A stretch of DNA of 64,000 nucleotides, from contig CAZSXR010000001.1 of NCBI GenBank assembly GCA_964611335.1, forward strand, positions 744,020-808,019. The letters are read 5' to 3'. This stretch comes from an uncultured Pseudobdellovibrionaceae bacterium. Its GTDB lineage: Bacteria > Bdellovibrionota_B > Oligoflexia > Oligoflexales > Bog-1112. Below the pieces are notes generated by a model. That model was not told the origin of the DNA, searched no databases, and saw only the letters and a list, made by a program, of their open reading frames with translations. Numbering within the stretch: the first letter of the stretch is position 1; each line of letters starts with the position of its first letter. Position numbers and translations under genes: made by a program. This document shows, piece after piece, positions 8,753 through 64,000 of the stretch.

Positions 8753-8754
8753 TT

Positions 8755-23092: not shown

Positions 23093-23167
23093 GGTTTTCC
23101 CTCCGATGGTTTACTCAATTATCGGAAGACGATGCAGAAACTTAAATTTCGTAGAAAGAAGGATATT

Positions 23168-34785: not shown

Positions 34786-34908
34786 TGCCTTTTAGGACTA
34801 TATTTAAAAACCGCTTGTTTTTTCTTTGCAGATGTAGTGAAAAAAGCGAGCAGATCATGTAAGATATTTTTTTTTTCAAGCGTCCGAAGGAAAGAGGAAT
34901 CACCGTCT

Positions 34909-39731: not shown

Positions 39732-42608
39732 CTAGTGAAAGTTTGTGAGCAATGTACCACAAGAGTTACCACTTGTGTCTGTGAATGTGATGTTCGTTGA
39801 ATTTGATGTTGCAGTAAATGTAAATTGTTTTGAAGCCCATGGCATGGGTGAAGTTGATGTTAACCCTGTTGTGTCGAAGCTGTAATTCGTGCTTGCAGCA
39901 GCAGCAGTCACAGTCATTGTTTTTGTTCCATTACCGCAATTGGGGTTTCCACCCATATCGAAATACAAAGTGTACGTTGTCCCTGAGTTTGTAAGAACAG
40001 ACTCACTTATGGAACCCGAACCTGTTCCGCTTAAATCAATGGTATAACCTCCCGTTGTTCCGAGAAAGGCTCCTGCAAAACCTCCTGACCCTATTACGGA
40101 TATAACTTCAATACTTCCTACTCCTATAGTCCAGTAGTATAAGTTTGTAGCACCCGCATTGAAATAGTCATCGCTATTGTTGAACTCATTGAAACTTCCT
40201 TCGTTGAAGTTGCCATTGAGTAATGACACTCTACTGTTTGAATTGCATGAGACTGAGTTCGTACACTGCGATGCAAGTACTGGACTTGTAAGTCCAGCAG
40301 GTGCTAAAGCATTTGCTGTCGGCATGATCCAAACGGGCTTTGTAGTAAAATCAAAGCCTGTAAAGCTACTTTGTGTCTGCATCTCAGTTGTGGTGGTGTA
40401 GGAAGTTAGTCCTGTCAGAGTTTGTGCAGGTACGCTTCCGTTTGCATAGAGATAGCAGTTTGTGCAAGTTGTTATCGTTTTTGCAAAGCCAACTCCATTC
40501 GTTAGTGTCATAGAAGGATTTGCCGAGTATGAAGTTGAAACAGTTACAGCAGCACCTGCGAGTCCACCATACACATCTGTTGCTATAGGGGTCGTCACAG
40601 TCATGGTGACCATTGTGTAACAGTTTGTGATGCTGCTACCTGAAGCACCATTATTTCCAACGAGTCCCCCCATATAGTAAGTCGCTGTTGTTATACTTAC
40701 GTTACGAGTTATTGTCATGCTTCCCACAACGAACGAGCTTGTTGTGGCAATACTTGCGCTGGTTAAACCTAACAAACCACCTATGTATTGGTTACCTGTA
40801 GCGGTTCCTGGGTTCACAGTCATAGTAGGTAGAGCATAAGAGTTAGTTATAGTCCCTGCTGTAACGTTACCAACGAGACCTCCTACAGCATTCGTAGCGA
40901 CAGCTTGGATCGCTGAAATGGTACCTCCGTAAGCTGAGTTTGCTACAATGGTGCCACCGAAGGAACCTATAAGTCCTCCCATATTCACAACGGTTCCAGA
41001 CATACTTGTAGCCATCCATTTCACAGTTGCTTGTGAAGTAGATGCGACAACAGAAGTTGCAGTAACAATCCCTATCAAACCACCAATGTTAATATTCTGA
41101 GCAATGCCAAATCCTGTTTGAACCAAACCTGTTGAGGTACAGTGGTATACGAATCCACTGGAAGATCCAGCAAGAGCTCCAATATTAGCTCCTCCTGCTG
41201 TGACCTCAACAGATACTAAATTTACATCTCTAACGGTTGCTCCCGAGTTGATGGTGCTAAATAAACCTACATTGAGTCCACCGTTTACATTGGTGCTCGT
41301 AATGTACAGGCCTGTTATGTTGTAGTTAGCTCCTGTGTATTGTCCATAAAGTGGAATAGGAGCCCAAGGTGTATCAGCTCCTCCTAAGTCTATATTGTTT
41401 GTTTGAACAAAGTATGTTGAGGAGCTTGTGCAATACTGAGTGTTTTTCAAAGCAATGGCATCTCCTATTAGGAAAGGGTTTGTGTTTGTTCCCAGTCCAT
41501 TTGCGAAATAAATTCCACATCCTCCTTGAGAACTCATAGGATTAAGGTCAACAATGATTTGAAAGTATAGGAAAGATAAAGACGTACCATTTGCATCTTT
41601 GTTACGAACTATAAAAATAAAGTTGTCACTCGTACTTGAAAAAGCACTCGTTAAAAGAGGAGAAGCATTGCTTGTATAAAAACCACCTCGTGGAAGCGTG
41701 TTGCTATTCAAGTCTGTACCACCTGGTGCTGTGATCAAAGTACCCAAAGTCACTGGTGTGTTTGCTGTGAAAGCTGCTGTTGCATCTGAAAAAGCTAAAG
41801 GATGTGGTGAGTAGGTGTCTGGAATAAGGAGATAATCCATCTGGCTTTGTAATAAGATTCCATCACAAGCGTAGGTTGCAGCAGAAGATCCTGTGAGGGT
41901 ACTTCCGCATTGCAAAGTAAAAGACAACTGAAGCTGATCAGAAGCATTCACGCCAAGATAGCGTGCTTGTAGCATATTGAAGTTGGGAGCGGGTGTAGTT
42001 GTGTTTATTACAGAGTTCCCTCCTGAAACAGCTACTGTCGGAAAAGTTTGAGTCGTGAGCGAGTTGTTAAATGCAAAATAATATCGGATCAGATCCGTCG
42101 AGAGCACTCCGCTTTGAGTGACTTGTGCACTTATGCCTACATCTATAAGATCCGTTGATAAAACTGTATTCGCAAAGGTTCCATAGTTTCCAGCAGTCCA
42201 TGCTGTAAAGTTGGTAGCACCCGTCGCTGTTGCAGAATAGGTATTCGCGTTGTAAACGAAACTGTTAAGTTTCACGAGGCAGTTTTGATCCCCTTTGTAC
42301 AAATAAATAAAACCTGATGTGACAACCGAAGGACCAAAGGTCATACCACTCGAACATCCTGTGATTTGAACAGTGATACTTGTTGCTGCTGTAGAGAGTT
42401 CTAAACTCGCTTTGTTTTGTGGTGAAGCGCTGATGGGGATTTTTATAAGTTCACTGACATTATTATTACTATCTGAATGTCTAAATAAGGAACCGCAGTT
42501 GCTAATTCCCAATATAGAAATGAAAATAACAATCACACGCAGAGTCTGTGCCTGTCTAAGCACGGAAATCCCACGCAGTGTAGACACATGTTTTAAAAAT
42601 CGTGTCAT
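39732..42608 (-). CDS. GLUG-repeat lipoprotein, family member 1 (958 aa) with C-terminal DUF642-like domain
   Basis: Lipobox ILGISNC. N-module landmarks are GCSSG, DQNCLVKLNSF, YSATATGATNFTAW, FTLQC and YACDG. CGIYFANGLGTNTNPF..YFVQTNNIDLGG..PWAPIPLYGQYTG.NYNITGLY is followed by more than 10 GGLxG-type repeats, then FTGFDFTTKPVWIMP. The tail is LLNGNFNEGSF..YTLYFDMGGNP..FTATSNSTNITF. Confidence 0.85.
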   Translation of the reverse strand: MTRFLKHVSTLRGISVLRQAQTLRVIVIFISILGISNCGSLFRHSDSNNNVSELIKIPISASPQNKASLELSTAATSITVQITGCSSGMTFGPSVVTSGFIYLYKGDQNCLVKLNSFVYNANTYSATATGATNFTAWTAGNYGTFANTVLSTDLIDVGISAQVTQSGVLSTDLIRYYFAFNNSLTTQTFPTVAVSGGNSVINTTTPAPNFNMLQARYLGVNASDQLQLSFTLQCGSTLTGSSAATYACDGILLQSQMDYLLIPDTYSPHPLAFSDATAAFTANTPVTLGTLITAPGGTDLNSNTLPRGGFYTSNASPLLTSAFSSTSDNFIFIVRNKDANGTSLSFLYFQIIVDLNPMSSQGGCGIYFANGLGTNTNPFLIGDAIALKNTQYCTSSSTYFVQTNNIDLGGADTPWAPIPLYGQYTGANYNITGLYITSTNVNGGLNVGLFSTINSGATVRDVNLVSVEVTAGGANIGALAGSSSGFVYHCTSTGLVQTGFGIAQNINIGGLIGIVTATSVVASTSQATVKWMATSMSGTVVNMGGLIGSFGGTIVANSAYGGTISAIQAVATNAVGGLVGNVTAGTITNSYALPTMTVNPGTATGNQYIGGLLGLTSASIATTSSFVVGSMTITRNVSITTATYYMGGLVGNNGASGSSITNCYTMVTMTVTTPIATDVYGGLAGAAVTVSTSYSANPSMTLTNGVGFAKTITTCTNCYLYANGSVPAQTLTGLTSYTTTTEMQTQSSFTGFDFTTKPVWIMPTANALAPAGLTSPVLASQCTNSVSCNSNSRVSLLNGNFNEGSFNEFNNSDDYFNAGATNLYYWTIGVGSIEVISVIGSGGFAGAFLGTTGGYTIDLSGTGSGSISESVLTNSGTTYTLYFDMGGNPNCGNGTKTMTVTAAAASTNYSFDTTGLTSTSPMPWASKQFTFTATSNSTNITFTDTSGNSCGTLLTNFH

Positions 42609-42732
42609 TTCAACGTGTCCTGTTGGGGGTAAACACCCTCCACTCTCCTTATCGTTATTTTGAAGGTGAAAGTTGAGAAATTAGGAATAAAGGCTTATTT
42701 TTTTAGTAAAATTGGCATGTTGCGTACTTTTT

Positions 42733-45597
42733 TTACTCGCGAACATTATCGATAACCGGTCCATAGTTAGAACCGTTGGTACTTGTGAATGTGAGCGTTG
42801 TTGTTGTAGCAATTGCTGTGAATGTGAAACTTTTAGTTATGTATCCCATATTGTTTGTAGTTGTGTATGTTGTGTCAAAGCTATAGCTTTGAGAGTCATT
42901 TGCAGCTGTCACAGTCATCGTCTTCACGTTAGGGTTGCCTGCTGCGTTACCTGCCATATCGAAATAGATTGTGTAAGTTCGTCCTACAGTTGTTGCCAAA
43001 ACTTGACTTAAAGATCCTATCGAAACATCGTTCAAGTCTATGGTGAAGGTCCCATCAGTGGCTTGCATCCAAATCTGCCAGTTTACACCGTCTCCTCCAG
43101 AGGTCCAGTTGAAGAGTCGAGTATCTCCGGGGTCGTATTGGATTTGGTTTCCTCCTGGGTAGGTTCCATATTCAAAACTTCCGTTTGCGATAAGGCTTCC
43201 GTTTTCATCACAGGCTTGCCCATTGATTCCGCATTGCCATTCAAGAATAGGACTGAGAAGATTGTTGGGAGACAGTAAGTTTGTATTATGTGGCAAATCC
43301 CAAATGGGTGTTGTTGTGAAATCAAATCCTGTGAAGTTTGAACTTACAACCATTTGAGTAGAAGTTGTATACGAAGTCAGACCTGTTAAAGTTTGTGCAG
43401 GGACCGTTGCGTTTGCATAAAGATAGCAGTTTGTACAGGTGGTGATGGCATCTGCGAAGCCTACACCGTTTGTGGTTGTCATCGAAGGGTTTGCAGAATA
43501 GGAGTTGCTTACAGTTGCTGCGCTTCCTACAAAGCCTCCATAGAAGTCCCCTGCTACTGCTGTTGTCACCGTCATAGCAACCATAGTGTAGGAGTTAGAA
43601 AGGGTGCTGGATGCTCCACTCTGGCCTACAAGACCTCCTATGTAATAAACTGCTGCATTGCTTGCGCGAGTGACTGTTATGGCTCCTGTTGCGAAGTTTT
43701 GTGAAAGTGTAAGACCTGCTGCTGAGAATCCTACAAGTCCACCTATGTACTGATTACCCAAAGAGGTCGCAGGATTCACTGACATTGTAGGTTTTGCATA
43801 AGAGTATTGTACTGTTCCCGCAAGGACTGCACCGACCAACCCTCCTACTGCATTTCTTACAAAGGTTCCTAGGCGCTCGGTAGCAGTTATCGTTCCTGTA
43901 TAAGAACTGCTTGTAATGGAAGTTCCTGAACTATCACCAACAAGTCCACCTATATCTACCGTCGTTCCTGTTGTGCTTGTTGCTCCCCATGTCACAGTTG
44001 CAGTTGATCTCGAAGAACTGATAGTTCCTCCACTTGCAAGCGTGCCAACTAATCCACCCATGATGACATTTTGTGTGATTGCAGAACCTGTTGCAACGGT
44101 TCCACTGGAGGTGCAGTTCGTAACGGTACCGCTGACACTTCCTGCTAATGCACCCATATTCAATCCAACCCCTGTCACGCTGACTCCACTCACATTGCAA
44201 TTGGAGATGCTAGCTCCTGCATTAATTGTGCTAAACAATCCGACGTTGGCGCCTGTACCACTCGTATTGTTAATATAGAGTCCCGTTATAGTGTAGTTCT
44301 TGGCATTATATTGTCCGTAAAGTTGTATAGGTGTCCAAGGAGTTCCAGAGCCTCCTAGGTCGATGTCTGCTGTCTGTACAAAATAAGTCGTGGACGAGGT
44401 GCACAAAGCAGTGTTTTGAAGATAGGTTCGTGTGTTGACTTGATAAGGATTTGAAGCTGTCCCCGTTCCTCCCGCAAAAGAAGTTCCGCAAGCGCTTGTA
44501 GCAACTGTGCCCGATGTAAAGGTGACATAAAAGTAAAGATAAGAAGGAAACGCCCCTGTGCTGTCGGTTCCTCTCACAAGATAGATAAAGAGGTTGTTAG
44601 TACTTATGCTAGAGACGGTACTGATAAATTGAGAGCCCGCACCTGTTGCAGTAACAAAACCTCCATTTGTAAGAGTGTGTCCGTGTCCATCTGTTCCTCC
44701 TGGTGCAATGATATTTCCCGCAACACTTGCAGAATGGTTCAAACTTGAATTTGTCGAATAAATGGAATCAGCTTCAGCAAGTGTTAAAGTCGCCTGTGAG
44801 GCAGCAGGTACAATCATATAATTGAGAGCTCCTGTTCCGTTCACAGGCATGCCGTTACAAGTGTAAGGATTGCTTCCTGCGAGAGCTACGCTGCATTGCA
44901 ACGTGATGTACACATTTGCACTTCCTCCTACGTTGTAACTTATTATGCTTGAAGCGTTGTAAGTAAAAGAAGGTGCGTTCTGTCCTGCGACAGAAAGAGC
45001 GCCTCCATAAGTTATAGAAGTTTGTGCTAAGTTTTGTGTAGCTGCTGTACCGACTTCTTGTACTGTATAGGAGACTTGGTCGCTAACAAGAGTGCCACTC
45101 TGTGTGAGTTGTCGAAGCACTGAAACTCCGATAAGATCTCCTGGATTTAATGGATTTTGAAAGACTGCTACATCTCCCGGAAGCCAAGTTGTAAATGGTA
45201 CAGCATTGATTCCTGTTACATAATAGTTATTCGATCCATATTGAAAGCCTTCCAATTTTACCAAGCAATTTTTATCACCTGCATATACAAAACTCATATT
45301 CGATCCGGATGTTGCGATCATAGTAGGGTTTACAGCGTTTCCACTGGCACAGCCTGCCATAGATACGACGATATTACTTGCCGTAGAGACGAGATTTAAA
45401 CCTGCAGAAGAAATATCTCTCTTTTGATAAAGAGAGAAAGGGATGGAATATTTTTCATTATTAGAATCAGAAGCACAGTTGGGAATAGAAAGAGTCACCA
45501 TGAAGGAAAGTATTAAACCAAAAAATGCAAAACCAAAAACCCTATATCTTGAATAGGATTGCTTGTGTTGTTCTCCATGTTTATGGACTAATTTCAT
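42733..45597 (-). CDS. GLUG-repeat lipoprotein, family member 2 (~954 aa) with C-terminal DUF642-like domain
   Basis: Same architecture with lipobox LSIPNCAS. The tail is ANGSFEYGTYPGG..WTSGGDGVNWQ..IDLN..YTIYFDMAGNAAGNP..GPVIDNVRE. I start at ATG 45597 (MKLVHKHGEQ..FAFFGLILSF). The track ORF extends 60 K/N-rich codons to 45777 with no counterpart in the paralogs. Confidence 0.8.
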   Translation of the reverse strand: MKLVHKHGEQHKQSYSRYRVFGFAFFGLILSFMVTLSIPNCASDSNNEKYSIPFSLYQKRDISSAGLNLVSTASNIVVSMAGCASGNAVNPTMIATSGSNMSFVYAGDKNCLVKLEGFQYGSNNYYVTGINAVPFTTWLPGDVAVFQNPLNPGDLIGVSVLRQLTQSGTLVSDQVSYTVQEVGTAATQNLAQTSITYGGALSVAGQNAPSFTYNASSIISYNVGGSANVYITLQCSVALAGSNPYTCNGMPVNGTGALNYMIVPAASQATLTLAEADSIYSTNSSLNHSASVAGNIIAPGGTDGHGHTLTNGGFVTATGAGSQFISTVSSISTNNLFIYLVRGTDSTGAFPSYLYFYVTFTSGTVATSACGTSFAGGTGTASNPYQVNTRTYLQNTALCTSSTTYFVQTADIDLGGSGTPWTPIQLYGQYNAKNYTITGLYINNTSGTGANVGLFSTINAGASISNCNVSGVSVTGVGLNMGALAGSVSGTVTNCTSSGTVATGSAITQNVIMGGLVGTLASGGTISSSRSTATVTWGATSTTGTTVDIGGLVGDSSGTSITSSSYTGTITATERLGTFVRNAVGGLVGAVLAGTVQYSYAKPTMSVNPATSLGNQYIGGLVGFSAAGLTLSQNFATGAITVTRASNAAVYYIGGLVGQSGASSTLSNSYTMVAMTVTTAVAGDFYGGFVGSAATVSNSYSANPSMTTTNGVGFADAITTCTNCYLYANATVPAQTLTGLTSYTTSTQMVVSSNFTGFDFTTTPIWDLPHNTNLLSPNNLLSPILEWQCGINGQACDENGSLIANGSFEYGTYPGGNQIQYDPGDTRLFNWTSGGDGVNWQIWMQATDGTFTIDLNDVSIGSLSQVLATTVGRTYTIYFDMAGNAAGNPNVKTMTVTAANDSQSYSFDTTYTTTNNMGYITKSFTFTAIATTTTLTFTSTNGSNYGPVIDNVRE

Positions 45598-45837
45598 AAC
45601 AAAATATTTCCCGATCGTTTGCGCATTCTCCTTGCAAAGATTCACCAGTATGCTGTTCGTCTTTTTCTTTTGCAAAAATGAGTGGTCGAGCACTCTCACT
45701 TTAAAAGGATTTTTAACGCACTGATTTTTAAAGAAATTATCATTTCTTTTTTTTAAAAAAATATTCTTAATTTTCATAATTAAAATGACGACAAGGAGTA
45801 TGCTCAGTGTCTGCCTAATTCAAGGAGGAGTCTTACT

Positions 45838-48171
45838 TTGTTAGGCAAACGTTTATATTCTTGGATTGTAATTTCGATAGTGTTTCTTATCACAACGTGT
45901 GGTGGAAGCATTAAGAGTCCTTTTGATAGTCAAAAATCAGAGGTTCGAAATACGATTCCTGTGAGCGTAAGTTTGAAACCAAAAGTTGAGTCTCTATCAA
46001 GTTCAGGTGTGAATCTTTCAACTCCTTCGACTTCAGTTGTGACGAATTTTTCAATGACGATTATGGGGTGTTTGTCAGGATTTACAACAACCATTGATGA
46101 GAATACGGCTATTGTGAATTTTCCAACTTCAGATACTAGTTGCCTTGTGAAACTTACATCATTCACTACAGATATGGGTATAACTTATACTCCTTCAGCA
46201 ACACACCCTTTTACAACTTGGCAAATCGGTGATTATAATATTTTTAATGGAACGGATAGCACGAGTGTTTATGTTGCTGTCGTTGATACGGTGAGTAGCC
46301 CTATTGTTTCGGGGGATGTGGTTCAATATGAGTTTGCAACCTATAACGTAACTGTTGCATCTCCCGTCCATATTTTAGGAGCTTCCGTCAGTGTTGCGGG
46401 AGGTACTATTGCTTTTACAGGAACCTCTCAAGGTCAAGTTCTTAGAATTTTTGGTGTGGGTATAACAGCTATCTCTACATCGAATCTCGCAACTCTTGCT
46501 GTAGAGTTGTCGTGTAATGTTGTTGTTTCGGGAACAACCTGTTCTTCTATCCCTCTTCCAACAGGAACTTCCGCGCCGTATACGATCAGTTATGGATTTT
46601 TGAACGCAGCTCCTGCGAATTTGCAAACTACTTACACTTATGCTGTGATCAATGCTGCAGCCTCGACAGCTCTCACAGGCACTGCAGTTGCTGCCAATGG
46701 TGGAACACCTGTTATGCCGAATGGTGGTGTGTCTTTGTCTACATTTACGAAAACTCCTGGTTCGCTTGTAACTATTTTTCAAAAAATTGTTAACAGCACA
46801 AATATTACTTACAATTATTGGAACATATTGATTCCTACTGTGAATTGTGGGCCTTCTATATTTGCCGGTGGTGCTGGGACTTTGCAAAATCCTTATCAGG
46901 TGAATTCAGCTGAGATGCTTTACAACACCCAGTATTGCACAACAGTGAACACCTATTTTATACAAACTGCGCATATAGATCTCGTGAATACAGTTTGGAC
47001 GCCCATACAGCTTTATGGTCAGTACAATGGCAATGGTTATGACATTTCGAATCTGTCTATTACGGGTGGAACTACGACAAATGTGGGTCTGTTTTCAGTG
47101 ATAAATGTGGGTTCGAGTATTTCCAGTCTCAATATTCGAGCTGTGAATCTTTCTGGAGGAGTCAATATAGGGGCCTTAGCAGCTCAGATGTTAGGGGGAA
47201 CTCTGACAAGCATTTTTTCAAGTGGGAGCGTAATTGCGAATTCTATTGCAACAGGTACTGGTGTGAAGGCTGGGGGACTTATAGGATCTATGGTAGGCGG
47301 AAGTATGACGAGTGCTTCCTCTTCCGTCGATATTACTTTCAACGCAGCTTCAGGAAACGCGAACGTTTCACGTATTGGAGGATTAATCGGGTATGCAGCA
47401 TCCTCAACAGGGACCATTTCTATCAGTAGTTCTTCTGCAACAGGGTCTATTTCAGCGTCCGGGACTTCTCCTACTACTGCAATTTATTCAGGTGGTTTCA
47501 TAGGAGAGTTTTCTGCAGTATCTTCTGGTATGACTATCAGCAATTCTTATGCAACGGGAGGCCTGACTTCTACATTTACTCCGGGAGCCATAGGTTTTAT
47601 AACCGGAGGATTTATTGGCTTTTCTCAATCTGCAGCAGCTGGTGCAGTTAGCGTTTCAGGCTCGTTTGCAACAGGATCTTTATCCGTTGTTTCAGGTACT
47701 GGTTGTAACATGCTTATTGGTGGTTTCATAGGATCAGCAAATTCCAACACAACAGCAAATACCATGAGCAATTCTTATGCTATGGGTTCTATTACAGTCG
47801 CTGGTACAGCAAGTAACGGTGCAGCGGGTGGTTTTATAGGAAGCTCCGGAAGCTCGACAATTACAACATCCTATTCTTCAGCGTCCTCTATGTCGGTTGC
47901 TATTGTTCCCAACAAACAAGGATTTATCGGAGCTAACCCAACAACTGCGTCATCCGATTACTTTTATGCGAATGCTAGCGTTCCTGGAAACTCTTTTGGC
48001 GGCGTTACGGGTTTGACCACAACAACTGCAATGCAGACTCAGTCCAGCTTTACTGGATTTACTTTCCCAGGAACATGGAGAATGCCGAGTGCAAACCCAT
48101 TATCTCCAGCAGGTTTGCTAAGTCCTGTTTTGAATTGGCAATGTGGTAGCAATGGAATCACATGTATTTAA
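45838..48171 (+). CDS. GLUG-repeat lipoprotein, family member 3 (777 aa, most divergent N-module)
   Basis: TTG start with AGGAGGA upstream and lipobox FLITTCGG. CGPSIFAGGAGTLQNPYQ..YFIQTAHIDL..WTPIQLYGQYNGNGYDISNL is followed by GGLIG/GGFIG repeats. Ends WRMPSANPLSPAGLLSPVLNWQCGSNGITCI. Confidence 0.85.
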   Translation: MLGKRLYSWIVISIVFLITTCGGSIKSPFDSQKSEVRNTIPVSVSLKPKVESLSSSGVNLSTPSTSVVTNFSMTIMGCLSGFTTTIDENTAIVNFPTSDTSCLVKLTSFTTDMGITYTPSATHPFTTWQIGDYNIFNGTDSTSVYVAVVDTVSSPIVSGDVVQYEFATYNVTVASPVHILGASVSVAGGTIAFTGTSQGQVLRIFGVGITAISTSNLATLAVELSCNVVVSGTTCSSIPLPTGTSAPYTISYGFLNAAPANLQTTYTYAVINAAASTALTGTAVAANGGTPVMPNGGVSLSTFTKTPGSLVTIFQKIVNSTNITYNYWNILIPTVNCGPSIFAGGAGTLQNPYQVNSAEMLYNTQYCTTVNTYFIQTAHIDLVNTVWTPIQLYGQYNGNGYDISNLSITGGTTTNVGLFSVINVGSSISSLNIRAVNLSGGVNIGALAAQMLGGTLTSIFSSGSVIANSIATGTGVKAGGLIGSMVGGSMTSASSSVDITFNAASGNANVSRIGGLIGYAASSTGTISISSSSATGSISASGTSPTTAIYSGGFIGEFSAVSSGMTISNSYATGGLTSTFTPGAIGFITGGFIGFSQSAAAGAVSVSGSFATGSLSVVSGTGCNMLIGGFIGSANSNTTANTMSNSYAMGSITVAGTASNGAAGGFIGSSGSSTITTSYSSASSMSVAIVPNKQGFIGANPTTASSDYFYANASVPGNSFGGVTGLTTTTAMQTQSSFTGFTFPGTWRMPSANPLSPAGLLSPVLNWQCGSNGITCI

Positions 48172-48183
48172 GGGAGCTATAGA

Positions 48184-50595: not shown

Positions 50596-50607
50596 CGGAG
50601 ATATAGT

Positions 50608-53517: not shown

Positions 53518-53526
53518 GAGTTTGCT

Positions 53527-55905: not shown

Positions 55906-56126
55906 GTGGAGCTAATTTCCTTGTTTGCCATAACTTTAGCGTAGATAGAGGATGAAGTCGGAGCGACAGAAGACGGATGTTAGCGACTCATAAGTTCTAG
56001 AAGCAGCGCATAACCGCATGAAAATACTGCAAAAAGATCATTTCTTAGAAATTCCCTCATTTTTTAACCCTTACATTACGATAAGTGTTTAGGATTCTTG
56101 TTTCTTTAAGAATCGGGGGCACGAGT

Positions 56127-58496
56127 GTGATCAGAAACGGTAGAAATCGAAGACCCTACTCTTTTGTATTGGCATCATTCTTTTCGATGTCGATGCTCTT
56201 CGTTTTTTATTTCACACTTAGTAAATGTTCTAATGATAGCAATAATTCTGAAAAAGTCAGCATTCCTGTGACTCTTAGCTACACACCCAAAACAGGTTTA
56301 GATCTTAGTGACTCCTTAGATCTCGCATCTAATGCAACATCTGTCAGTATATCTGTCACAGGCTGTGCAAGTGGTGCGAATTACCCTTCGCAGTTAAATC
56401 CTACAGGTGTTGTAAGTCTATTTGTTGGAGATAGAAACTGTCTAGTTAAGTTACAAAGTTTTGAAGTTTTTGGAACCATTTATTCAGCGACAGCAACGGG
56501 AGCGACAAACTTCACAACGTGGACTCCAGGAAGTGTTGCAACCTTTGCAAGTATAAGCTCGTCAACAACTACAATTAAAGTTTTTGTCGCATCTCAAGTT
56601 ACAGCAGCGGGTGTTCTGTCAAATGATGCAGTAACCTACACGTTTACCGATACGAGTTCCACAACAACGCAGAACATATCACAAGCGTCAATTTCAACTC
56701 CTGTTCCCCTTTCTGTATCAGGGCACACGGGTGAACCAAACTTCACTTTAACAGCAGCTCGTGCTCTCTCTATAAATGCAAACGGTTCCTACAATATGTC
56801 TTTTACTTTGCAATGTGCTGTTCCAGAGACAGGATCTACAGGCCCCACCTATGCATGCAGTGGAGCTTTATTGCAATCACAGTTTGACTATATATTGATT
56901 CATGATGCGTATTCACAAGGTGTTATCACTGTTCAACAAGCGAATGCAGCGTTCGTTGCAAACACTCCCACAACTGTGGGAACTCTCACGGTTGCGCCGG
57001 GTGGAAATGATTTGAATGGTAACAATCTCCCCAATGGTGGTTTTTACACAAGCAATGCAAGTCCTCTTGTAACAGGCACAACGCCTGTATTTTCAAACAA
57101 TAGGGACAATGTATTTATACTTCGACAGAAAACAACAGGTGGAAGTGCTACAGGGTATTTGTATTTCTACGTGAATTTACCGCTTATTTCTTCAAGTGTC
57201 AGTGCGTGTGGTGGTGCTTTTGCGGGTGGAGATGGAAGTGCAACGAGTCCCTACGGTGTGAACGATGTTACTACGTTGGCAAATGTGGATGCGTGTGGAA
57301 CATCTGCAACTTATTTTGTGCAACTTGCAACATTTGACTTAGGAGGTTCGGGAACGCCTTGGACTCCTATTCAGCTTAATGGCCAGTATGATGGAGGAGG
57401 ATATTCCATCACAGGTCTTTATGTAAACAGAACTACCGCAAGTGCAAGCGACGCTTTGTTTAGTAGTATAGGTACGGGTGCAAGCGTCGCGAATCTTACA
57501 ATAAGTTCGGGAAGTGTAAGTTCCTCAGGAACAAACATAGGCATGTTGGCAGGAACATCTAGTGGTTCCATCACGAATGTGACTGTGAGTGGCACCGTAG
57601 CAACACAAGGAACCATTGCATCGACGGTCATTATAGGTGGTTTGATTGGAAACTTAGCGACTGGTGGGAGCATCACAAGCTCGAGTTCAACAGCAAGTGT
57701 GACATGGGGTGCAACAACATTGACAGGAACGACAGTACAAATGGGAGGTCTTGTTGGAAATACTTCAGGGACATCGATTACTTCGTGCTCTTACGTGGGA
57801 ACTATAACGGCAACGCAACGTGTTGGTACTTTTGTACTGAATGCAGTCGGTGGTTTAGTAGGATCTGTAACCGCAGGAAGTGTGTCTCAGAACTATGCAA
57901 TAGCAACGATGTCGGTAAACCCCAACACATCTTTAGGTCCTCAGGATATAGGAGGCTTGGTGGGTCAGACGGCAGCAAGCATTACACTTTCACAAAACTA
58001 TGCGTCGGGTTCTTTAACGGTGACAAGAGTTGCAAGCTCAGCTGTATACAATATAGGTGGTATGGTGGGACTAGCGGGTGCAACAAGCACGATTATAAAT
58101 TCTTACACGATGGTAACGATGAGTGTTACGACAGCAACAGCGACAGACTTTTACGGAGGTTTTGTAGGAAAAGCAGTTGCTATAACCGATTGTTATTCTG
58201 CGAATCCAACGATGTCGACGACACAGGGTAACGCTTTTGCAAAGGCATCGGGTGTAACAGGTACTGTTACAACGTCCTATTACGATTCTATTGGTGGCTT
58301 ACCTACTCAAGGAGCTATCACAGGTTTGAGTGCTATCACTCCTGCGAATATTGCAACGCAAGGAAGTTTTACGGGATTTGATTTCGCAACACCGATATGG
58401 AGAATGCCAAGTGCTAACCCACTTGCCTCTCCGAATACAACTTTGAGTCCTGTGTTGAACTGGCAGTGCGGTTCGAATGGAATTACGTGTATTTAA
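56127..58496 (+). CDS. GLUG-repeat lipoprotein, family member 7 (~789 aa)
   Basis: The track ORF starts at GTG 56085. By analogy with the paralog N-termini (x-I/L-R-N..), GTG 56127 (MIRNGRNRR..) is more likely. Lipobox FTLSKCS; ends WQCGSNGITCI. Confidence 0.8.
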   Translation: MIRNGRNRRPYSFVLASFFSMSMLFVFYFTLSKCSNDSNNSEKVSIPVTLSYTPKTGLDLSDSLDLASNATSVSISVTGCASGANYPSQLNPTGVVSLFVGDRNCLVKLQSFEVFGTIYSATATGATNFTTWTPGSVATFASISSSTTTIKVFVASQVTAAGVLSNDAVTYTFTDTSSTTTQNISQASISTPVPLSVSGHTGEPNFTLTAARALSINANGSYNMSFTLQCAVPETGSTGPTYACSGALLQSQFDYILIHDAYSQGVITVQQANAAFVANTPTTVGTLTVAPGGNDLNGNNLPNGGFYTSNASPLVTGTTPVFSNNRDNVFILRQKTTGGSATGYLYFYVNLPLISSSVSACGGAFAGGDGSATSPYGVNDVTTLANVDACGTSATYFVQLATFDLGGSGTPWTPIQLNGQYDGGGYSITGLYVNRTTASASDALFSSIGTGASVANLTISSGSVSSSGTNIGMLAGTSSGSITNVTVSGTVATQGTIASTVIIGGLIGNLATGGSITSSSSTASVTWGATTLTGTTVQMGGLVGNTSGTSITSCSYVGTITATQRVGTFVLNAVGGLVGSVTAGSVSQNYAIATMSVNPNTSLGPQDIGGLVGQTAASITLSQNYASGSLTVTRVASSAVYNIGGMVGLAGATSTIINSYTMVTMSVTTATATDFYGGFVGKAVAITDCYSANPTMSTTQGNAFAKASGVTGTVTTSYYDSIGGLPTQGAITGLSAITPANIATQGSFTGFDFATPIWRMPSANPLASPNTTLSPVLNWQCGSNGITCI
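57561..58496 (+). repeat. copy B of ~0.94-kb direct repeat (3' block of member 7)
   Basis: Offset of exactly 2388 bp to copy C. 58059-58450 reads identical base for base to 60447-60838 (392 bp). Mismatches elsewhere are scattered. Confidence 0.9.
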
Positions 58497-58514
58497 CGAA
58501 GAAGGAGTTTGGGT

Positions 58515-60884
58515 GTGAATCAAAGAGTTAACATAAAACCACGTTTCATCTTGGTGTCGGTATTTTGGATGCCGTTGTTAGCTCTTTTGTATTTTACTTT
58601 TCATTCTTGTTCTAATGATGAGAACTCCGATCTTGTTGCTGTTGAGATTCCTATTTCCGTAACCTACCAACCTTCTACAGAGCTTGCGCAAGAGGAGGAT
58701 TCCCTCGAACTTGTATCATCAGCAACGGTCGTCACGGCTTCTATTTCAGGTTGTTCAAGTGGATATACAGCAGGAACGACGGTTCAAACTTCAACTATAA
58801 CTATGTATCTGACTGATAAAAACTGTCTTGTGAAGTTACAAAGTTTCATCTTTCAAAACACAACGTATTCTGCAACTGCAACCGGCGCAACAAACTTCAC
58901 AACTTGGTTAGCAGGAGATGCTGCAAGTTTTGCAAGCACAGCATCTTCTACCAATGTAATTAAAGTCAAAGTCGGTACGCAGGTTACACAAGCGGGTATA
59001 CTGAATACAGATGTAGTATCCTATCTCTTTACAGATATTTCTTCAACCACCACTCAAAATTTAACACAGCCTTCTGTCTCAACACCTGTTCCTCTTTCCG
59101 TTAGTGGGAAATCACCAAACTTTACTTTGACTGCAGCGAGAACTCTTGCAATCAATGCGAATGGTTCGTACAGTGTTTCCTTCACTTTGCAATGTGGTGT
59201 TTTGCAAACGGGATCTGGTGCAACTGCTGCATGTGATGGTGCAACGTTACAGGCTACAACACCTGCGCAACTGTCTTATATATTTATACCGGATGTTTAT
59301 TCTCAGGGTGCACTTGATGTTACACAATTAACAGCAGCTTTCGGTGCGAATACGCCAACAAGTGTGGGTACACTGACTGTGAACCCTGGTGGTGCAGATT
59401 TAAATGGAAACACTCTGACAAACGGTGGATTTTATACAAGCAATGCAAGCCCCCTTGTAACAGGAACGACACCAGTTTATCCGAGTGCTTTGAACTACGT
59501 GTTTATGCTTCGACGATCAGATTCTTTCTCAAACGCATTGGGCTATTTATATTTCTATGTAACCTTTCCTTCTTTCTCTTCTCTCGTTAGTGGATGTGGA
59601 ACTACGTTTGCAGGTGGAGCAGGAACTGCAGCAGATCCTTATGGGGTTAATGATCGTACGACTTTAGCAAACACCGTAAACTGCGCAACATCTGCAACTT
59701 ATTTTGTACAAACTGCCAATATAGATTTGGGTGGTTCTGGAAACCCATGGATACCTATTCAACTCAATGGCCAGTACAATGGAAATGGAAATTCTATCAC
59801 AGGACTTTATGTAAACCGTTCGACAGCAAGTGCAAGCGACGCTTTGTTTACTAGCATTGCTACGGGAGCGAGCGTTTCAAACTTAAATATTACATCTGCG
59901 AGTGTATCGTCTGCAGGCACAAAAATAGGCATTCTTGCGGCAGATGCAAGTGGTTCCATCACGAATGTGACTGTGAGTGGCACCGTAGCAACACAAGGGA
60001 CCATTGCATCGACAGTCATCATAGGTGGTTTGATTGGAAACTTAGCGTCGGGTGGAAGCATCACAAGCTCGAGTTCAACAGCAAGTGTGACATGGGGTGC
60101 AACAACATTGACAGGAACGACAGTACAAATGGGAGGTCTTGTTGGAAATACTTCAGGGACATCGATTACTTCGTGTTCTTACGTGGGAACTATAACGGCA
60201 ACGCAACGTGTTGGTACGTTCGTACTGAATGCAGTCGGTGGTTTAGTAGGATCTGTGACCGCAGGAAGTGTGTCCCAGAACTATGCAATAGCAACGATGT
60301 CGGTAAACCCTAATACATCTTTAGGTCCTCAGGATATAGGGGGCCTAGTTGGTCAGACGGCAGCAAGCATAACGCTTTCGCAAAACTATGCATCGGGTTC
60401 TATGACGGTTACAAGAGTTGCAAGCACAGCTGTATACAGCATTGGGGGTATGGTGGGACTAGCGGGTGCAACAAGCACGATTATAAATTCTTACACGATG
60501 GTAACGATGAGTGTTACGACAGCAACAGCGACAGACTTTTACGGAGGTTTTGTAGGAAAAGCAGTTGCTATAACCGATTGTTATTCTGCGAATCCAACGA
60601 TGTCGACGACACAGGGTAACGCTTTTGCAAAGGCATCGGGTGTAACAGGTACTGTTACAACGTCCTATTACGATTCTATTGGTGGCTTACCTACTCAAGG
60701 AGCTATCACAGGTTTGAGTGCTATCACTCCTGCGAATATTGCAACGCAAGGAAGTTTTACGGGATTTGATTTCGCAACACCGATATGGAGAATGCCAAGT
60801 GCTAACCCACTTGCCTCTCCGAATACAACTTTGAGTCCGGTGTTAGACTGGCAGTGTGGTTCGAATGGAATTACGTGTATTTAA
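58515..60884 (+). CDS. GLUG-repeat lipoprotein, family member 8 (~789 aa)
   Basis: The GAAGGAG SD is 8 nt before GTG 58515; track TTG 58509 is only 2 nt from the SD. Lipobox FTFHSCS. The 3' block is near-identical to member 7. Confidence 0.85.
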   Translation: MNQRVNIKPRFILVSVFWMPLLALLYFTFHSCSNDENSDLVAVEIPISVTYQPSTELAQEEDSLELVSSATVVTASISGCSSGYTAGTTVQTSTITMYLTDKNCLVKLQSFIFQNTTYSATATGATNFTTWLAGDAASFASTASSTNVIKVKVGTQVTQAGILNTDVVSYLFTDISSTTTQNLTQPSVSTPVPLSVSGKSPNFTLTAARTLAINANGSYSVSFTLQCGVLQTGSGATAACDGATLQATTPAQLSYIFIPDVYSQGALDVTQLTAAFGANTPTSVGTLTVNPGGADLNGNTLTNGGFYTSNASPLVTGTTPVYPSALNYVFMLRRSDSFSNALGYLYFYVTFPSFSSLVSGCGTTFAGGAGTAADPYGVNDRTTLANTVNCATSATYFVQTANIDLGGSGNPWIPIQLNGQYNGNGNSITGLYVNRSTASASDALFTSIATGASVSNLNITSASVSSAGTKIGILAADASGSITNVTVSGTVATQGTIASTVIIGGLIGNLASGGSITSSSSTASVTWGATTLTGTTVQMGGLVGNTSGTSITSCSYVGTITATQRVGTFVLNAVGGLVGSVTAGSVSQNYAIATMSVNPNTSLGPQDIGGLVGQTAASITLSQNYASGSMTVTRVASTAVYSIGGMVGLAGATSTIINSYTMVTMSVTTATATDFYGGFVGKAVAITDCYSANPTMSTTQGNAFAKASGVTGTVTTSYYDSIGGLPTQGAITGLSAITPANIATQGSFTGFDFATPIWRMPSANPLASPNTTLSPVLDWQCGSNGITCI
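59949..60884 (+). repeat. copy C of ~0.94-kb direct repeat (3' block of member 8)
   Basis: See copy B. Confidence 0.9.
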
Positions 60885-60899
60885 CAGAGGAGTTTGAGT

Positions 60900-63284
60900 G
60901 TGAAATGGAAGTTTGAAATGTTTAAAAGAATAGCGATGGTTTCCACCTTTTGGATATCTCTCGCTATGTTTTTGCATTTCACTTTTGAAGCTTGCTCAAA
61001 TGATTCTAATAACAATGCAGAGACAGTGAATATACCGCTCAAAGTTTTATACACAGCTTCACAAAATTTAGATCTTCAAAACCAAGGAGAATTGGGACTT
61101 GTCAATGGAACTGTACAAATTATTTCTGTTGCTGGATGTGCCAGTGGATTTGCACAAGCACCTGAGGTGGATGACTGGGGTTATGTCACTCTTTTGTTGA
61201 AAGATAGAAACTGTCTTGTAAAACTCAGTAGTTTTGTCTATGGAACAACGACTTATTCAGCTACAGCAACCGGTGCAACAAATTTTACAACATGGTTAGC
61301 GAATGACACAGCAACCTTTGCAAGTATTACAAACTCTTCAGACCTTCTTCGTGTAGTTGTCACAGCACAAGTAACTCAAGGTGGTATTCTAAACACAGAC
61401 GTTGTGACTTATACGTTCAACACTATTGCTGCGACAACAACGCAAAGCTTAGCGCAACCTACTATTTCAACAGCTGTTCCTCTTTCTGTGAGAGGTAAGT
61501 CACCAAACTTTACTATGACAGCTGCTAGAACCCTTACGATTAATGCAAATGGTTCTTACAGTGTATCGTTCACTTTACAATGTGGTGTTTTACAAACGGG
61601 ATCTGGTGCAACTGCCGCATGCGATGGTGCAACGTTACAGGCTACAACGCCTGCTCAAGTCGATTATATATTTATACCGGATGCCTATTCACAGGGTGCC
61701 ATTACAGAAGCGCAAATGGCTTCAGCTTTTGGTGCTACTACACCAACAAATGTGGGTACATTGACTGTGAACCCTGGTGGTGCAGACTTAAACGGAAATA
61801 CATTAACGAATGGTGGATTTTATACAAGCAATGCAAGTCCTCTAGTAACAGGGACAACACCCGTCTATCCGAATGCATTGAACTATGTGTTTATAGTTCG
61901 TAGAAGAGATACCTTCTCTAATGCTTTGGGCTATCTATATTTCTATGTAAATTTCCCATCGCAATCTATTAATGTTAGCGGATGTGGAACTTACTTCGTA
62001 GGAGGTTCCGGTACATCCATAGATCCTTATCAAGTGGCAGATCGTGCAACTTTAGCAAACACAGCTTTATGTACAAGTTCCACAACCTATTTCTTACAAA
62101 CAGACAATATTGACTTGGGTGGTTCAGGAAACCCTTGGACACCTATACAACTCTATGGTCAGTACAATGGGAGTGGATACAATATTACGGGACTCTATAT
62201 AAGCAGTACAACAGGAAGCGGTGGTGCAAGTTTTGGTTTGTTCAGCACAATGAACACAGGTTCTAGTGTTTCCGATTTGAACCTTGTTTCTGTAAGTGTA
62301 ACTGCAGCAGGTTTGAACGTCGGAGCCTTAGCAGGAAATGCTAGTGGTTCAGTAACGAATTGTACAGTGAGTGGAACAGTCACGACGGGTGCTGCTGCAA
62401 TTTCTCAAAACGTGGTGATGGGAGGGCTTGTTGGAAATTTAGCGACAGGTGGAACGATTACGACTTCTAATTCAACAGCAAGTGTATCGTGGGGGACGAG
62501 TACTTTATCAGGAACACGTACAGTGCAAGTGGGTGGGCTTGTTGGTAATACTTCAGGAACTTCCATTACACTCAGCTCTTATGTCGGTACGATCAGCGCA
62601 ACCGAAGCGGTGGGAACGTTTACGCTCAATGCAGTTGGTGGATTGGTTGGTTCTGTTACAGCAGGATCTGTTTCACAGAATTATGCAATTCCTACAATGA
62701 CAGTGACTCCAGGTACGTCCTTAGGACCTCAAGATATAGGTGGACTTGTAGGTCAAACAGCTGCAGGTATTACTCTGACACAAAATTATGCTTCAGGTTC
62801 TATCACTGTAACAAGGCCAGCAAGTACTGCAGTCTATAGTATAGGAGGTATGGTAGGTCTTGCTGGAACAACCAGTACTATTTCAAATTCCTATACGATG
62901 GTAACGATGAGTGTTACGACAGCAACAGCGACAGACTTTTACGGAGGTTTTGTAGGAAAGGCCGTTGCTATAACCGATTGCTATTCTGCGAATCCATCGA
63001 TGTCGACAACGCAGGGTAACGCTTTTGCAAAGGCATCAGGTGTAACAGGTACCGTTACAACATCCTATTACGATTCTATTGTAGGCTTGCCTACTCAAGG
63101 AGCTATCACAGGTTTGAGTGCCATAACTCCTGCGAATATTGCAACGCAAGGAAGTTTTACAGGATTCGATTTCGCAACACCGATATGGAGAATGCCAAGT
63201 GCTAACCCACTTGCATCTCCGAATACAACTTTGAGTCCAGTCTTGAACTGGCAGTGCGGTTCGAATGGAATCACATGTATTTAA
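60900..63284 (+). CDS. GLUG-repeat lipoprotein, family member 9 (~794 aa)
   Basis: The GAGGAG SD is 8 nt before GTG 60900 (the track ORF starts at TTG 60894). Lipobox FTFEACS. The N-module shares a long near-identical stretch with member 8 (ANGSYSVSFTLQCGVLQTGSGATAACDGATLQATTPAQ). Confidence 0.85.
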   Translation: MKWKFEMFKRIAMVSTFWISLAMFLHFTFEACSNDSNNNAETVNIPLKVLYTASQNLDLQNQGELGLVNGTVQIISVAGCASGFAQAPEVDDWGYVTLLLKDRNCLVKLSSFVYGTTTYSATATGATNFTTWLANDTATFASITNSSDLLRVVVTAQVTQGGILNTDVVTYTFNTIAATTTQSLAQPTISTAVPLSVRGKSPNFTMTAARTLTINANGSYSVSFTLQCGVLQTGSGATAACDGATLQATTPAQVDYIFIPDAYSQGAITEAQMASAFGATTPTNVGTLTVNPGGADLNGNTLTNGGFYTSNASPLVTGTTPVYPNALNYVFIVRRRDTFSNALGYLYFYVNFPSQSINVSGCGTYFVGGSGTSIDPYQVADRATLANTALCTSSTTYFLQTDNIDLGGSGNPWTPIQLYGQYNGSGYNITGLYISSTTGSGGASFGLFSTMNTGSSVSDLNLVSVSVTAAGLNVGALAGNASGSVTNCTVSGTVTTGAAAISQNVVMGGLVGNLATGGTITTSNSTASVSWGTSTLSGTRTVQVGGLVGNTSGTSITLSSYVGTISATEAVGTFTLNAVGGLVGSVTAGSVSQNYAIPTMTVTPGTSLGPQDIGGLVGQTAAGITLTQNYASGSITVTRPASTAVYSIGGMVGLAGTTSTISNSYTMVTMSVTTATATDFYGGFVGKAVAITDCYSANPSMSTTQGNAFAKASGVTGTVTTSYYDSIVGLPTQGAITGLSAITPANIATQGSFTGFDFATPIWRMPSANPLASPNTTLSPVLNWQCGSNGITCI
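62343..63284 (+). repeat. copy D of direct repeat (3' block of member 9; 5' half more diverged, 2 extra codons)
   Basis: From ~62890 onward it is very close to copies B and C (for example a 66-bp identical run acgatggtaacgatgagtgttacgacagcaacagcgacagacttttacggaggttttgtaggaaa). The last 200 bp is a patchwork of A-type and B/C-type variants. Confidence 0.8.
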
Positions 63285-63298
63285 AGTGAGGATATTTT

Positions 63299-64000
63299 GT
63301 GAGCATAAGATTACACATCGATAATAGATCTACACGTCTGATTCTGACGTCCGTGTTTTGGATATCGATGCTTTCCCTTTTACCTTTTGTAATCGATGCT
63401 TGTTCGAATGATGAAAATAATGATGCTTCGAGTTATGAAATACCTGTAAGTATTATAGATACAAATTCGCAAAGTTTAGAAATTCAAAATTCAGATGAGA
63501 ATTCTCTAGGTCTTGTTAATGGTACGAATCCTGCAGTGGCAGTTACAGGTTGTGCAAGTGGAAACACTCAACTTGCGCATATTATTACGAGTACGGTCAC
63601 ACTGTTACTTAAAGATAAAAACTGTCTTGTAAGACTTGTAAGTTTTGTCTACTTAACAAACACCTATTCCGCAACGGCGACAGGAGCTACAAACTTTACA
63701 ACATGGTTAGCAAATGATACAGCGACTTTCGTAAATGTGAATACATCTACCGATACTTTGAAAGTTACTGTGACGGCTCAGGTTACTCAATCGGGTGTGT
63801 TGAATACCGACGTGGTGACTTATAATTTTCTTACGAGCACCTCTTCTACAACGCAGACTTTAGCAGCTCCTCTCATACAAACAGGGGTTCCTCTTTCCGT
63901 TAGAGGAGTAACTCCAAACTTCACAATGGCCGCAGCGCGGTCTCTTTCTGTGAATGCAAATGGTTCCATAAATATGTCTTTCACTCTCGAGTGTGGGGTT
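63299..64000 (+). CDS. GLUG-repeat lipoprotein, family member 10 (5' part only; runs off the right edge)
   Basis: Absent from the ORF track (no stop in window). My translation from GTG 63299 (GAGGA SD) gives VSIRLHIDNRSTRLILTSVFWISMLSLLPFVIDACSNDENN...VTGCASGN..DKNCLVRLVSFVY..YSATATGATNFTTWLANDTATF...NMSFTLECGV. Confidence 0.8.
   Translation, partial: MSIRLHIDNRSTRLILTSVFWISMLSLLPFVIDACSNDENNDASSYEIPVSIIDTNSQSLEIQNSDENSLGLVNGTNPAVAVTGCASGNTQLAHIITSTVTLLLKDKNCLVRLVSFVYLTNTYSATATGATNFTTWLANDTATFVNVNTSTDTLKVTVTAQVTQSGVLNTDVVTYNFLTSTSSTTQTLAAPLIQTGVPLSVRGVTPNFTMAAARSLSVNANGSINMSFTLECGV

Follow-up and report, generated by a model that had tools for sequence, protein, structure and literature searches.

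The last 24 kb of the 64,000-nucleotide stretch of DNA analysed here (the window; contig CAZSXR010000001.1 of an uncultured Pseudobdellovibrionaceae bacterium) are filled by ten consecutive genes of one family, called g1 to g10 below, which raises the question of what such an array encodes and how its members are kept. We consider it probable, with considerable room for doubt, that the array encodes a set of co-expressed and exported binding proteins of the cell envelope, probably of its surface, which are non-enzymatic and probably lipid-anchored.

According to this proposal, each protein would start with a Sec signal peptide that leads up to a conserved Cys, followed by a short Ser/Asn/Asp-rich tether and by a two-part, disulfide-stabilised β domain (the N-module), which elsewhere in the lineage would be a lipoprotein by itself. 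A rigid GLUG β-helix would then form a stalk, closed by a disulfide-containing C-terminal cap (the C-cap), and three members would end in an additional DUF642 domain, a jelly-roll of the carbohydrate-binding type. The β-helix would provide the scaffold and the spacing, specificity would reside in the N-module and DUF642, and the most likely role would be the binding of polysaccharide or protein ligands on particles, prey, hosts or the cell's own envelope. The array would have grown via tandem duplication, with gene conversion maintaining the similarity of the 3′ halves (helix and cap) as the N-modules diverge, and transcription would probably start at four sites (serving g1; g2; g3–g6; and g7–g10 and beyond).

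The family is real and lineage-restricted, but it belongs to a known kind and, on present evidence, does not amount to a new type of system. What is new is the combination of the N-module with the GLUG helix and the ten-gene array as such, while the theme of lineage-specific paralogous envelope families is already known, and paralogous arrays of β-helix envelope proteins are common in bacteria. Our search of the literature on GLUG function and on lipoproteins of the Oligoflexia gave nothing relevant, and no paper describing the array was found. Little work has been done on the Oligoflexia and related Bdellovibrionota, and most of their envelope biology is obscure. The locus defines a domain family with no counterpart in Pfam, NCBIfam or the PDB, together with its fusion to the known GLUG helix, and if the proteins are surface-exposed binders, they would be prime candidates for attachment to particles, prey or hosts.

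Ten paralogous genes of one architecture

The listing and translation of the open reading frames (ORFs) gives, between positions 39732 and 64000, nine complete genes and a tenth that is truncated where the window stops, all of one family. They span 24.3 of 64 kb (38% of the window); the complete ORFs have 777–1014 amino acids (aa), two of them on the minus strand, and eight genes run head to tail on the plus strand. A hidden Markov model (HMM) of the N-module, searched against the six-frame translation of the whole window, matched exactly these ten ORFs, with E-values from about 9e-63 to 2e-148 (1e-68 for the part-gene g10), and an all-against-all BLASTP comparison found no further paralogues among the other ORFs of the window. 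A preliminary description of this DNA had reported ten ORFs of one architecture, two on the minus and eight on the plus strand, covering more than a third of the window, and all of this holds.

The two minus-strand genes are g1 (39732–42608, 958 aa), which encodes a signal peptide with Cys38, the N-module (HMM E 1e-126), the GLUG β-helix, the C-cap and DUF642, and g2 (42733–45597, 954 aa), with the same architecture including DUF642. The ORF of g2 is open to 45777 (1014 aa); its start is most likely at 45597, because the Cys then becomes residue 41 and not 101, and because a promoter-like element (see below) falls inside the longer ORF. The plus strand begins with g3 (45838–48171, 777 aa), the most divergent member, with the C-terminal end NWQCGSNGITCI and an N-module HMM E of 9e-63. 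It is followed by g4 (48184–50595, 803 aa), separated from g3 by 12 nucleotides (nt) and having a GGGAG ribosome-binding site 7 nt before its GTG, g5 (50608–53517, 969 aa) and g6 (53527–55905, 792 aa).

The ORF of g7 is open from 56085, and the GTG at 56127 is most likely the start, since it has GGGGG 7 nt upstream and makes the Cys residue 34, in agreement with the paralogues. The gene then covers 56127–58496 (~789 aa), and its database entry begins later still (767 aa). The member chosen for modelling, g8 (58515–60884), has 789 aa, or 791 from the TTG at 58509, and g9 (60900–63284) has 794, or 796 from the TTG at 60894; the database entries of 789 and 794 aa fit starts two codons past the first in-frame TTG. 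From g10 (63299–64000, starting at the GTG 63299) the window holds the first 233 aa only, i.e., the signal peptide, Cys35 and most of the N-module, before the gene runs off its end.

The base composition of the window (38–46% GC) shows no break at the array, and no tRNA genes or Rfam matches were found in the window. In an independent short-read assembly, the sequence of the same genome is interrupted within g6, which is expected of a repeat, and a further member of the family from the same sequencing run (P0012) may belong to the same genome.

The GLUG helix and the N-module

Sequence homology to the GLUG β-helix domain (PF07581 and the C-terminal end of PF05342; 3n6z and the NTD2 domain of M26 proteases) covers residues ~360–700 in every paralogue, including the N-terminal cap G-x-G-T-x-x-P-Y...DIDL...W.PI and the GG[LIV]xG rungs. 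The Pfam Glug model (PF07581, gathering score 20.5 bits) is matched by g2 (46.7 bits), g9 (25.4) and g8 (21.6), with g1 slightly under the cut-off (19.3); no match to this 28-residue single-motif model was reported in g3–g7, and two metagenomic homologues, P0007 and P0006, lie above the cut-off with 49 and 32 bits. Against the PDB, the family profile matched 3n6z, a "putative immunoglobulin A1 protease", with an E-value of 3.5e-14 (profile positions 358–642 against chain residues 34–313), and 6xjb, 6xja, 7jgj, 7uvl and 7uvk with E-values of 5e-14 to 6e-13. The solved comparators, besides 3n6z, are the M26 proteases of S. pneumoniae and G. haemolysans (6xja, 6xjb, 7uvk, 7uvl).

The AlphaFold 2 (AF2) model of g8, built from a 29-sequence alignment of the family, has a mean predicted local distance difference test score (pLDDT) of 82.7. 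It consists of a helix at residues 15–35, a low-confidence tether, the N-module at 44–352, a β-helix at ~395–690 with regular short strands and pLDDT mostly >90, and the C-cap. When this model was submitted to Foldseek, the top five matches were IgA1 proteases (7uvl, 6xja and 6xjb first), with a probability of 1.00. The GLUG assignment made in the preliminary description is thus supported by Pfam, by the profile and by the fold. Its count of GGL(V/I)G units, a dozen or more, was too high, each complete protein having 6–10 matches, ~35 aa apart, to the permissive pattern G[GAS][LIFMV]x[GA].

In the IgA1 proteases the NTD2 β-helix is a non-catalytic gate, and the HEXXH site is located in other domains (PMC9637739). 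The window paralogues contain no HExxH and no match to Peptidase_M26_C, and their M26-type matches are confined to the helix, namely the final ~50 positions of PF05342 and positions ~980–1130 of ZmpA. Furthermore, none of the invariant or nearly invariant columns of the GLUG helix and C-cap holds D, E, H, K or R in the 29-sequence alignment. Together with the non-catalytic nature of the homologous NTD2, these observations indicate that the helix is a scaffold and not an enzyme, and that the array proteins are not IgA proteases; a protease function was accordingly rejected. In contrast to the M26 proteases, the array proteins lack the M26 catalytic domain, HExxH, G5 and LPXTG. Their helix stands behind a signal peptide, a Cys and the new N-module, in a Gram-negative lineage, and it closes with a family-specific disulfide loop, W-Q-C-G-x-N-G-x-x-C.

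The same data bear on the alternative that the proteins are polysaccharide-active enzymes, namely degradative lipoproteins targeted by DUF642, with the β-helix as a lyase or glycosidase scaffold like that of the pectate lyases and of GH28 and GH49. The right-handed β-helix fold is indeed common to both, and Foldseek also lists 3wwg (isopullulanase), 3b8y and 4yzq (pectate lyases); three members carry DUF642, and many secreted hydrolases are encoded in the window. However, those structural matches rank below the IgA1 proteases, with probabilities <=0.15 and TM-scores <=0.23, and at the sequence level the homology concerns specifically the GLUG helix, which is non-catalytic in IgA1 proteases. 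Since, moreover, no acidic or basic helix residue is conserved among the 29 homologues and no CAZy-type Pfam family was matched, we regard this alternative as very unlikely.

The proteins differ in how they end. The complete members other than g1, g2 and g5 stop at the loop W-Q-C-G-S-N-G-I-T-C-I or a near variant of it, while g1, g2 and g5 continue into a domain of ~155 aa that matches Pfam DUF642 (PF04862, cut-off 27 bits) with 52.2, 67.9 and 73.8 bits, respectively. It comprises residues 796–955 of g1 (nt 39744–40223, minus strand), 802–952 of g2 (nt 42742–43194, minus strand) and 814–968 of g5 (nt 53047–53511, plus strand); it is absent from the other complete paralogues, and the C-terminus of g10 lies beyond the window. 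TIGR04362, the "choice of anchor" C model, is passed by g2 (133.3 bits, cut-off 120), with g5 (119.7) and g1 (100.4) under the cut-off. In proteins of that type a C-terminal sorting anchor is expected after the domain. Here, no PEP-CTERM-like anchor follows: the three proteins stop 1–3 residues past DUF642 (...LLTNFH, ...IDNVRE and ...IDNIH) with no hydrophobic tail, so that any anchoring would be N-terminal.

The helix and cap also occur in other settings. In a New Zealand groundwater metagenome-assembled genome (MAG) labelled Deltaproteobacteria (nzgw171), locus L001 (6698–11308) encodes a 1536-aa protein with eight He_PIG domains followed by a GLUG helix and an LSPV-x-WQCG C-cap; it has no N-module, which shows that the helix-plus-cap unit is mobile between architectures. 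Relatives of ~1250 aa with two tandem GLUG modules behind one N-module were found as P0005, as P0030 and in L003 (Joint Genome Institute 3300020803 contig, 2416–13771), the last with three such double-helix genes head to tail. The helix module has thus undergone duplication inside single genes and not just from gene to gene.

The N-module is a domain of ~325 aa, all-β and in two parts in the AF2 model. Its sequence identity is 47–70% among g4–g10, and the divergent g2 and g3 have 26–40% to the others (26–30% for g3). Landmarks of this region that the preliminary description called invariant turned out to be conserved in a degenerate manner only, YSATATGATNFTTW being exact in 7/10 members, FTLQC in 7/10 and NGGFYTSNASPL in 3/10. 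The 29-sequence alignment of the family has four invariant Cys pairs, 82/106, 229/242, 363/392 and 783/790. An internal duplication of the N-module was considered and rejected, as hhalign of its two halves gave a probability of 0.2.

The N-module corresponds to no family in Pfam, NCBIfam, PADLOC or PHROGs, and it has no match among PDB sequences at E<=10. An origin from a defence system or a phage was rejected, PADLOC giving no matches and PHROGs a single one with an E-value of 0.0026. An exhaustive HMMER search over 1.84 billion cluster representatives returned 409 of them at E<=1e-3 and 307 at <=1e-10, which corresponds to a family of ~400 clusters at 50% identity. Names are attached only to relatives from an Oligoflexus sp. 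and from Pseudobacteriovorax antillogorgiicola, both annotated as hypothetical proteins. The lineage-specific tandem expansion that had been proposed from the first inspection of the sequence is supported.

Most of the best 150 of the 409 matches are stand-alone proteins of 300–400 aa. They are homologous to the array proteins throughout the 325-aa module and have in common with them two Cys pairs as well as the motifs D-x-x-C-x-x-K-L, F-T-T-W and N-G-G-F, and they end where the GLUG helix of the array proteins starts; most have canonical lipoboxes, and they are uncharacterised. In a minority of the relatives the module forms the N-terminal part of a larger protein. One such subfamily, to which the window proteins belong, continues with one or two GLUG helices. 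In other fusions the partners are He_PIG with four LamG domains, fn3 with β-propeller repeats, LamG alone, or a DUF1554-like region, and the large relatives with LamG, He_PIG and fn3 modules reach 1250–2555 aa. LamG, He_PIG, fn3 and β-propeller domains would, as predicted domains of the extracellular type, constitute a typical adhesin toolkit.

Judged from these comparisons, the N-module is an undescribed domain that is also present beyond this locus. The combination matches no characterised system, its database relatives being unnamed or "hypothetical", as the preliminary description had supposed. The domain is not exclusive to the array and belongs to a modest family of mostly stand-alone proteins.

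Sequence exchange, selection and expression

The two halves of the genes have different histories. The GLUG modules of g6–g9 are 74–90% identical and their C-caps 98–100%. Between g7 and g8, the DNA identity is ~30–55% over the first 400 alignment columns and 96–100% over most of the last 800 bp, with an exact common run of 392 bp. The rate of synonymous substitution (dS) for this pair is 0.10–0.13 in the 3′ half and ~1.6 in the N-module, which points to a difference of history, i.e., gene conversion, and not to constraint alone. The comparison thus indicates that gene conversion homogenises the 3′ halves of g6–g9, in contrast to the N-modules, which have diverged. Whole modules have also been exchanged between paralogues: the N-module of g4 clusters with those of g5–g9 and its helix with that of g3, and the helices of g1 and g2 cluster with those of g6–g9.

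The ratio of nonsynonymous to synonymous substitution rates (dN/dS) is 0.03–0.69 in every segment and pair tested. This, together with the intact state of all the ORFs, indicates that the genes are maintained by purifying selection. It also speaks to the possibility that the copies are decaying duplicates, left by an amplification that was recent and neutral and whose function is not maintained, for which the odd lipoboxes described below could be cited. The 24 kb are free of frameshifts and internal stops, dN/dS remains far below 1, dS is saturated in the N-modules, so that the copies would be old and constrained, and the Cys pairs and motifs are kept in metagenomic homologues at 34–50% identity. 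Decay is therefore extremely unlikely and already largely refuted.

Related loci are arrayed as well, with at least five genes in L003, three in L006 and two in L008, and they mix full-length, double-helix and N-module-only genes. When the neighbours of the array in the window were compared with nine related loci by tblastn, no conserved accessory genes were found; the 499-aa neighbour at 38204–39703, in particular, is not linked to the family elsewhere.

Gene conversion tracts and the exchange of modules between paralogues, along with diverged N-modules, conserved 3′ halves and the tandem arrangement of the genes, would also be expected if the array were a contingency or antigenic-variation store, whose members are expressed singly or reshuffled by gene conversion. 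The copies are, however, all intact and 9–14 nt apart as in operons, none of them lacks a signal peptide or a ribosome-binding site of its own, and dN/dS is <1 throughout. There are no truncated silent cassettes and no simple sequence repeats (SSRs) in the array, nor homopolymers in its coding regions, the sole homopolymer being a T8 at 45747–45754 in the g2/g3 intergenic region (such tracts number 16 in the window). The scanned upstream regions have no long inverted repeats flanking promoters, only two short AT-rich or palindromic ones of 12 and 16 nt, and no recombinase or invertase is encoded among the flanking ORFs scanned. Such a store is thus quite unlikely, and the array has no phase- or antigenic-variation hardware to go with the surface variation suggested earlier for it.

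Tandem envelope lipoprotein families with gene conversion are known, e.g., the Borrelia Vsp/Vlp and Mlp, the Mycoplasma Vlp/Vsa and the SusD-like expansions of Bacteroides. The array resembles them in its tandem paralogues, in the signal peptide followed by a Cys, in the mosaic of conserved and diverged parts and in its concerted evolution. It differs from them in having no variation switch, silent cassettes or repeats, in its unrelated folds, and in an operon-like layout that suggests co-expression.

As for this co-expression, the gaps within g3–g6 and within g7–g10 are 9–14 nt, and a purine-rich, Shine-Dalgarno-like stretch precedes most of the starts, so that the tight spacing and the ribosome-binding sites suggest that the genes of each group are expressed together. 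Longer non-coding stretches precede g1, the divergent pair g2/g3, and g7 (the g6–g7 gap is 179 nt from ORF to ORF). A 30-nt element, CTYAWYTTT-N13-ACGAHMAG, is located upstream of g1, g2, g3 and g7 and nowhere else within the 64 kb, with 0.04 occurrences expected by chance for a pattern that was derived from the same four sites it was counted on. Before g1 it occupies 42648–42677 on the minus strand (CTCAACTTTC..AACGATAAG, read TCAAC-N16-ACGATA), and before g2 45653–45682, also on the minus strand, with the common upstream pattern. On the plus strand it is found at 45766–45795 before g3 (TTAAT-N16-ACGACA), where a sigma-70-like match at 45752–45780 overlaps it, and at 56056–56085 in the g6–g7 gap (TCATT-N16-ACGATA). 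Matches to sigma-70 promoters and to terminators are no commoner than in shuffled sequence, and these signals were set aside as uninformative.

In the form TYAWY-N16-ACGAxx, the element corresponds in layout and spacing to a sigma-28 (FliA) promoter. In Bdellovibrio the FliA promoter TTAAG-N16-CCGATA drives most attack-phase genes, including those of cell-surface proteins (PMC3627812). With layout as its basis, a sigma-28 reading of the element is only a lead. Two better sigma-28-like sites, with a perfect CCGATA, occur elsewhere in the window on the minus strand, at 17469–17495 (CTAAA-N16-CCGATA), 34 nt upstream of the start codon of the gene at 15558–17435, and at 23120–23146 (TTTAA-N16-CCGATA), 28 nt upstream of the start codon of that at 21332–23092. 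As both of these genes encode orphan predicted lipoproteins, the perfect -10 sites hint that FliA-type promoters drive envelope-protein genes here, as in Bdellovibrio.

A bolder version of the argument would make the N-module a new lipoprotein fold, apparently specific to the Oligoflexia/Bdellovibrionota, that acts as a head for recognising ligands or prey or as a platform for displaying passenger domains at the surface, and the array a FliA-controlled, "attack-phase-like" repertoire, in which gene conversion maintains a common β-helix stalk and the recognition modules diversify. We consider this version unlikely. If it were true, the relaxed lipoboxes would imply an unusual specificity of Lsp or an alternative route of Cys-based anchoring.

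Membrane anchor, location and neighbouring genes

All members have a basic N-terminal region with 2–6 Lys/Arg, followed by a hydrophobic segment (maximum Kyte-Doolittle 12-mer score 1.9–3.0) and by a Cys at residue 21–41. This Cys is at least 90% conserved in the 29-sequence alignment and has no conserved partner (Cys34 in g8). The contexts of the Cys in the preliminary description are correct for all ten, the window lipobox sequences being ISNC, IPNC, ITTC, LESC, LEAC, FVQC, LSKC, FHSC, FEAC and IDAC. The canonical lipobox, taken as the PROSITE PS51257 pattern [LVI][ASTVI][GAS]C, is found in 75/121 stand-alone N-module relatives and in 7/28 long relatives; six stand-alone relatives that were inspected all have canonical lipoboxes (e.g., VMACG, ATGCG, VTGCG). 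The other predicted lipoproteins in the window are also mostly canonical (LSSC, SLGC, IFSC, FYAC, LLSC), with one ITEC. This one belongs to the product of 21332–23092 (minus strand), a 586-aa orphan protein whose signal peptide ends in ...LSITEC-KK, with Glu right before the Cys, which indicates that odd lipobox-like sites are not restricted to the array.

Taken together, the conserved Cys and the stand-alone relatives make it probable that the array products are lipoproteins, a more guarded form of the lipoprotein signal claimed earlier. The non-canonical lipoboxes would be a useful test case for the rules of lipoprotein processing outside model organisms. LptF/G is encoded in the window, which implies a diderm with lipopolysaccharide, and exposure of the array products at the cell surface is what we infer from their architecture.

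A different location would make them structural lipoproteins that face the periplasm from the outer or inner membrane, serving as spacers or tethers and not as adhesins. The default orientation of lipoproteins in most diderms is towards the periplasm, neither machinery nor a signal for surface export is identifiable, and the N-module is also a small stand-alone lipoprotein. The best Foldseek match of the N-module, to the GM2 activator (E 0.029, probability 0.63), shows a weak likeness to the lipid-binding β-cups of ML domains that would suit a role with envelope lipids. This likeness is, however, not significant, and proteins of 780–1000 aa with a rigid helix and a lectin-like DUF642 are large for the periplasm and have an architecture that is typically extracellular; the relatives of 1250–2555 aa with LamG, He_PIG and fn3 are likewise large. 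A ten-fold expansion of diverging paralogues, too, is more usual in proteins that face the environment. A periplasmic location therefore appears doubtful, with a small but real chance of being correct; in that case the gain would be mainly one of annotation and of a new domain model.

Several results weigh against the surface-binding repertoire that we favour. None of the ten window paralogues (0/10) has the canonical lipobox. The residue at position -2 is E, D or H in 5/10 and that at -1 is N, T, Q or K in 5/10; the latter residues are normally disfavoured by Lsp at -1, and lipidation may thus fail in some members. Nothing shows that the proteins are at the surface and not in the periplasm. 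The fold of the N-module has no significant structural match in the PDB or BFVD (Foldseek), no ligand-binding site is identifiable, and the inter-domain geometry of the g8 model is uncertain (predicted template-modelling score 0.60). In a lipoprotein the N-module, the most variable part, would moreover be membrane-proximal, which is the opposite of an adhesin with a variable tip. This could mean that the N-module has a ligand of its own, as its stand-alone occurrence suggests, or that the protein is oriented differently from what is assumed here. On the side of expression, sites that fit the published FliA consensus at 3 mismatches number 140 in the window against 143 expected and are thus not enriched, and the upstream element may be conserved simply through the paralogy of the upstream regions.

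The window also encodes many other exported proteins. Of the other genes, that at 15558–17435 (minus strand), which encodes an orphan 625-aa predicted lipoprotein, contains a G8 homopolymer at 16989–16996 (C8 on the coding strand), ~146 codons into the frame. It is the only G/C run of >=7 in the window, in a genome of ~41% GC, and could act as a slipped-strand on/off switch. The gene at 24222–26647 (plus strand) encodes a predicted lipoprotein (SLGC) with four Ig-like Big_5 domains and overlaps by 40 nt a gene of the OmpA family with an N-terminal β-barrel; the two look like an envelope pair. Two large secreted proteases, an S8 subtilase with a PA domain (27021–30137, minus strand, 1038 aa, lipobox LSSC) and an M36/fungalysin-like protein with a C-terminal proprotein-convertase P-domain (32257–34713, plus strand, 818 aa), flank two small oxidoreductase genes.

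The ribosomal-protein gene rpsD (S4; 34768–35529, plus strand, real start 34909) stands alone, outside a ribosomal-protein operon, between the M36-like protease gene and an IstB-like gene, with a T10 tract at 34867–34876 just upstream of its start. The S4 protein has 79% identity to an entry labelled "MAG: Deltaproteobacteria bacterium" and 70% to one labelled "MAG: Oligoflexales bacterium". Together with the named N-module relatives and the groundwater MAG, these matches place the source among uncultured, Oligoflexia-like Bdellovibrionota. The IstB/DnaC-like gene (35572–37193, plus strand) encodes an AAA ATPase of 297 aa with a Cys-rich N-terminus and overlaps a 243-aa orphan ORF by 4 nt; as no transposase is adjacent, it is probably not part of an IS21 element.

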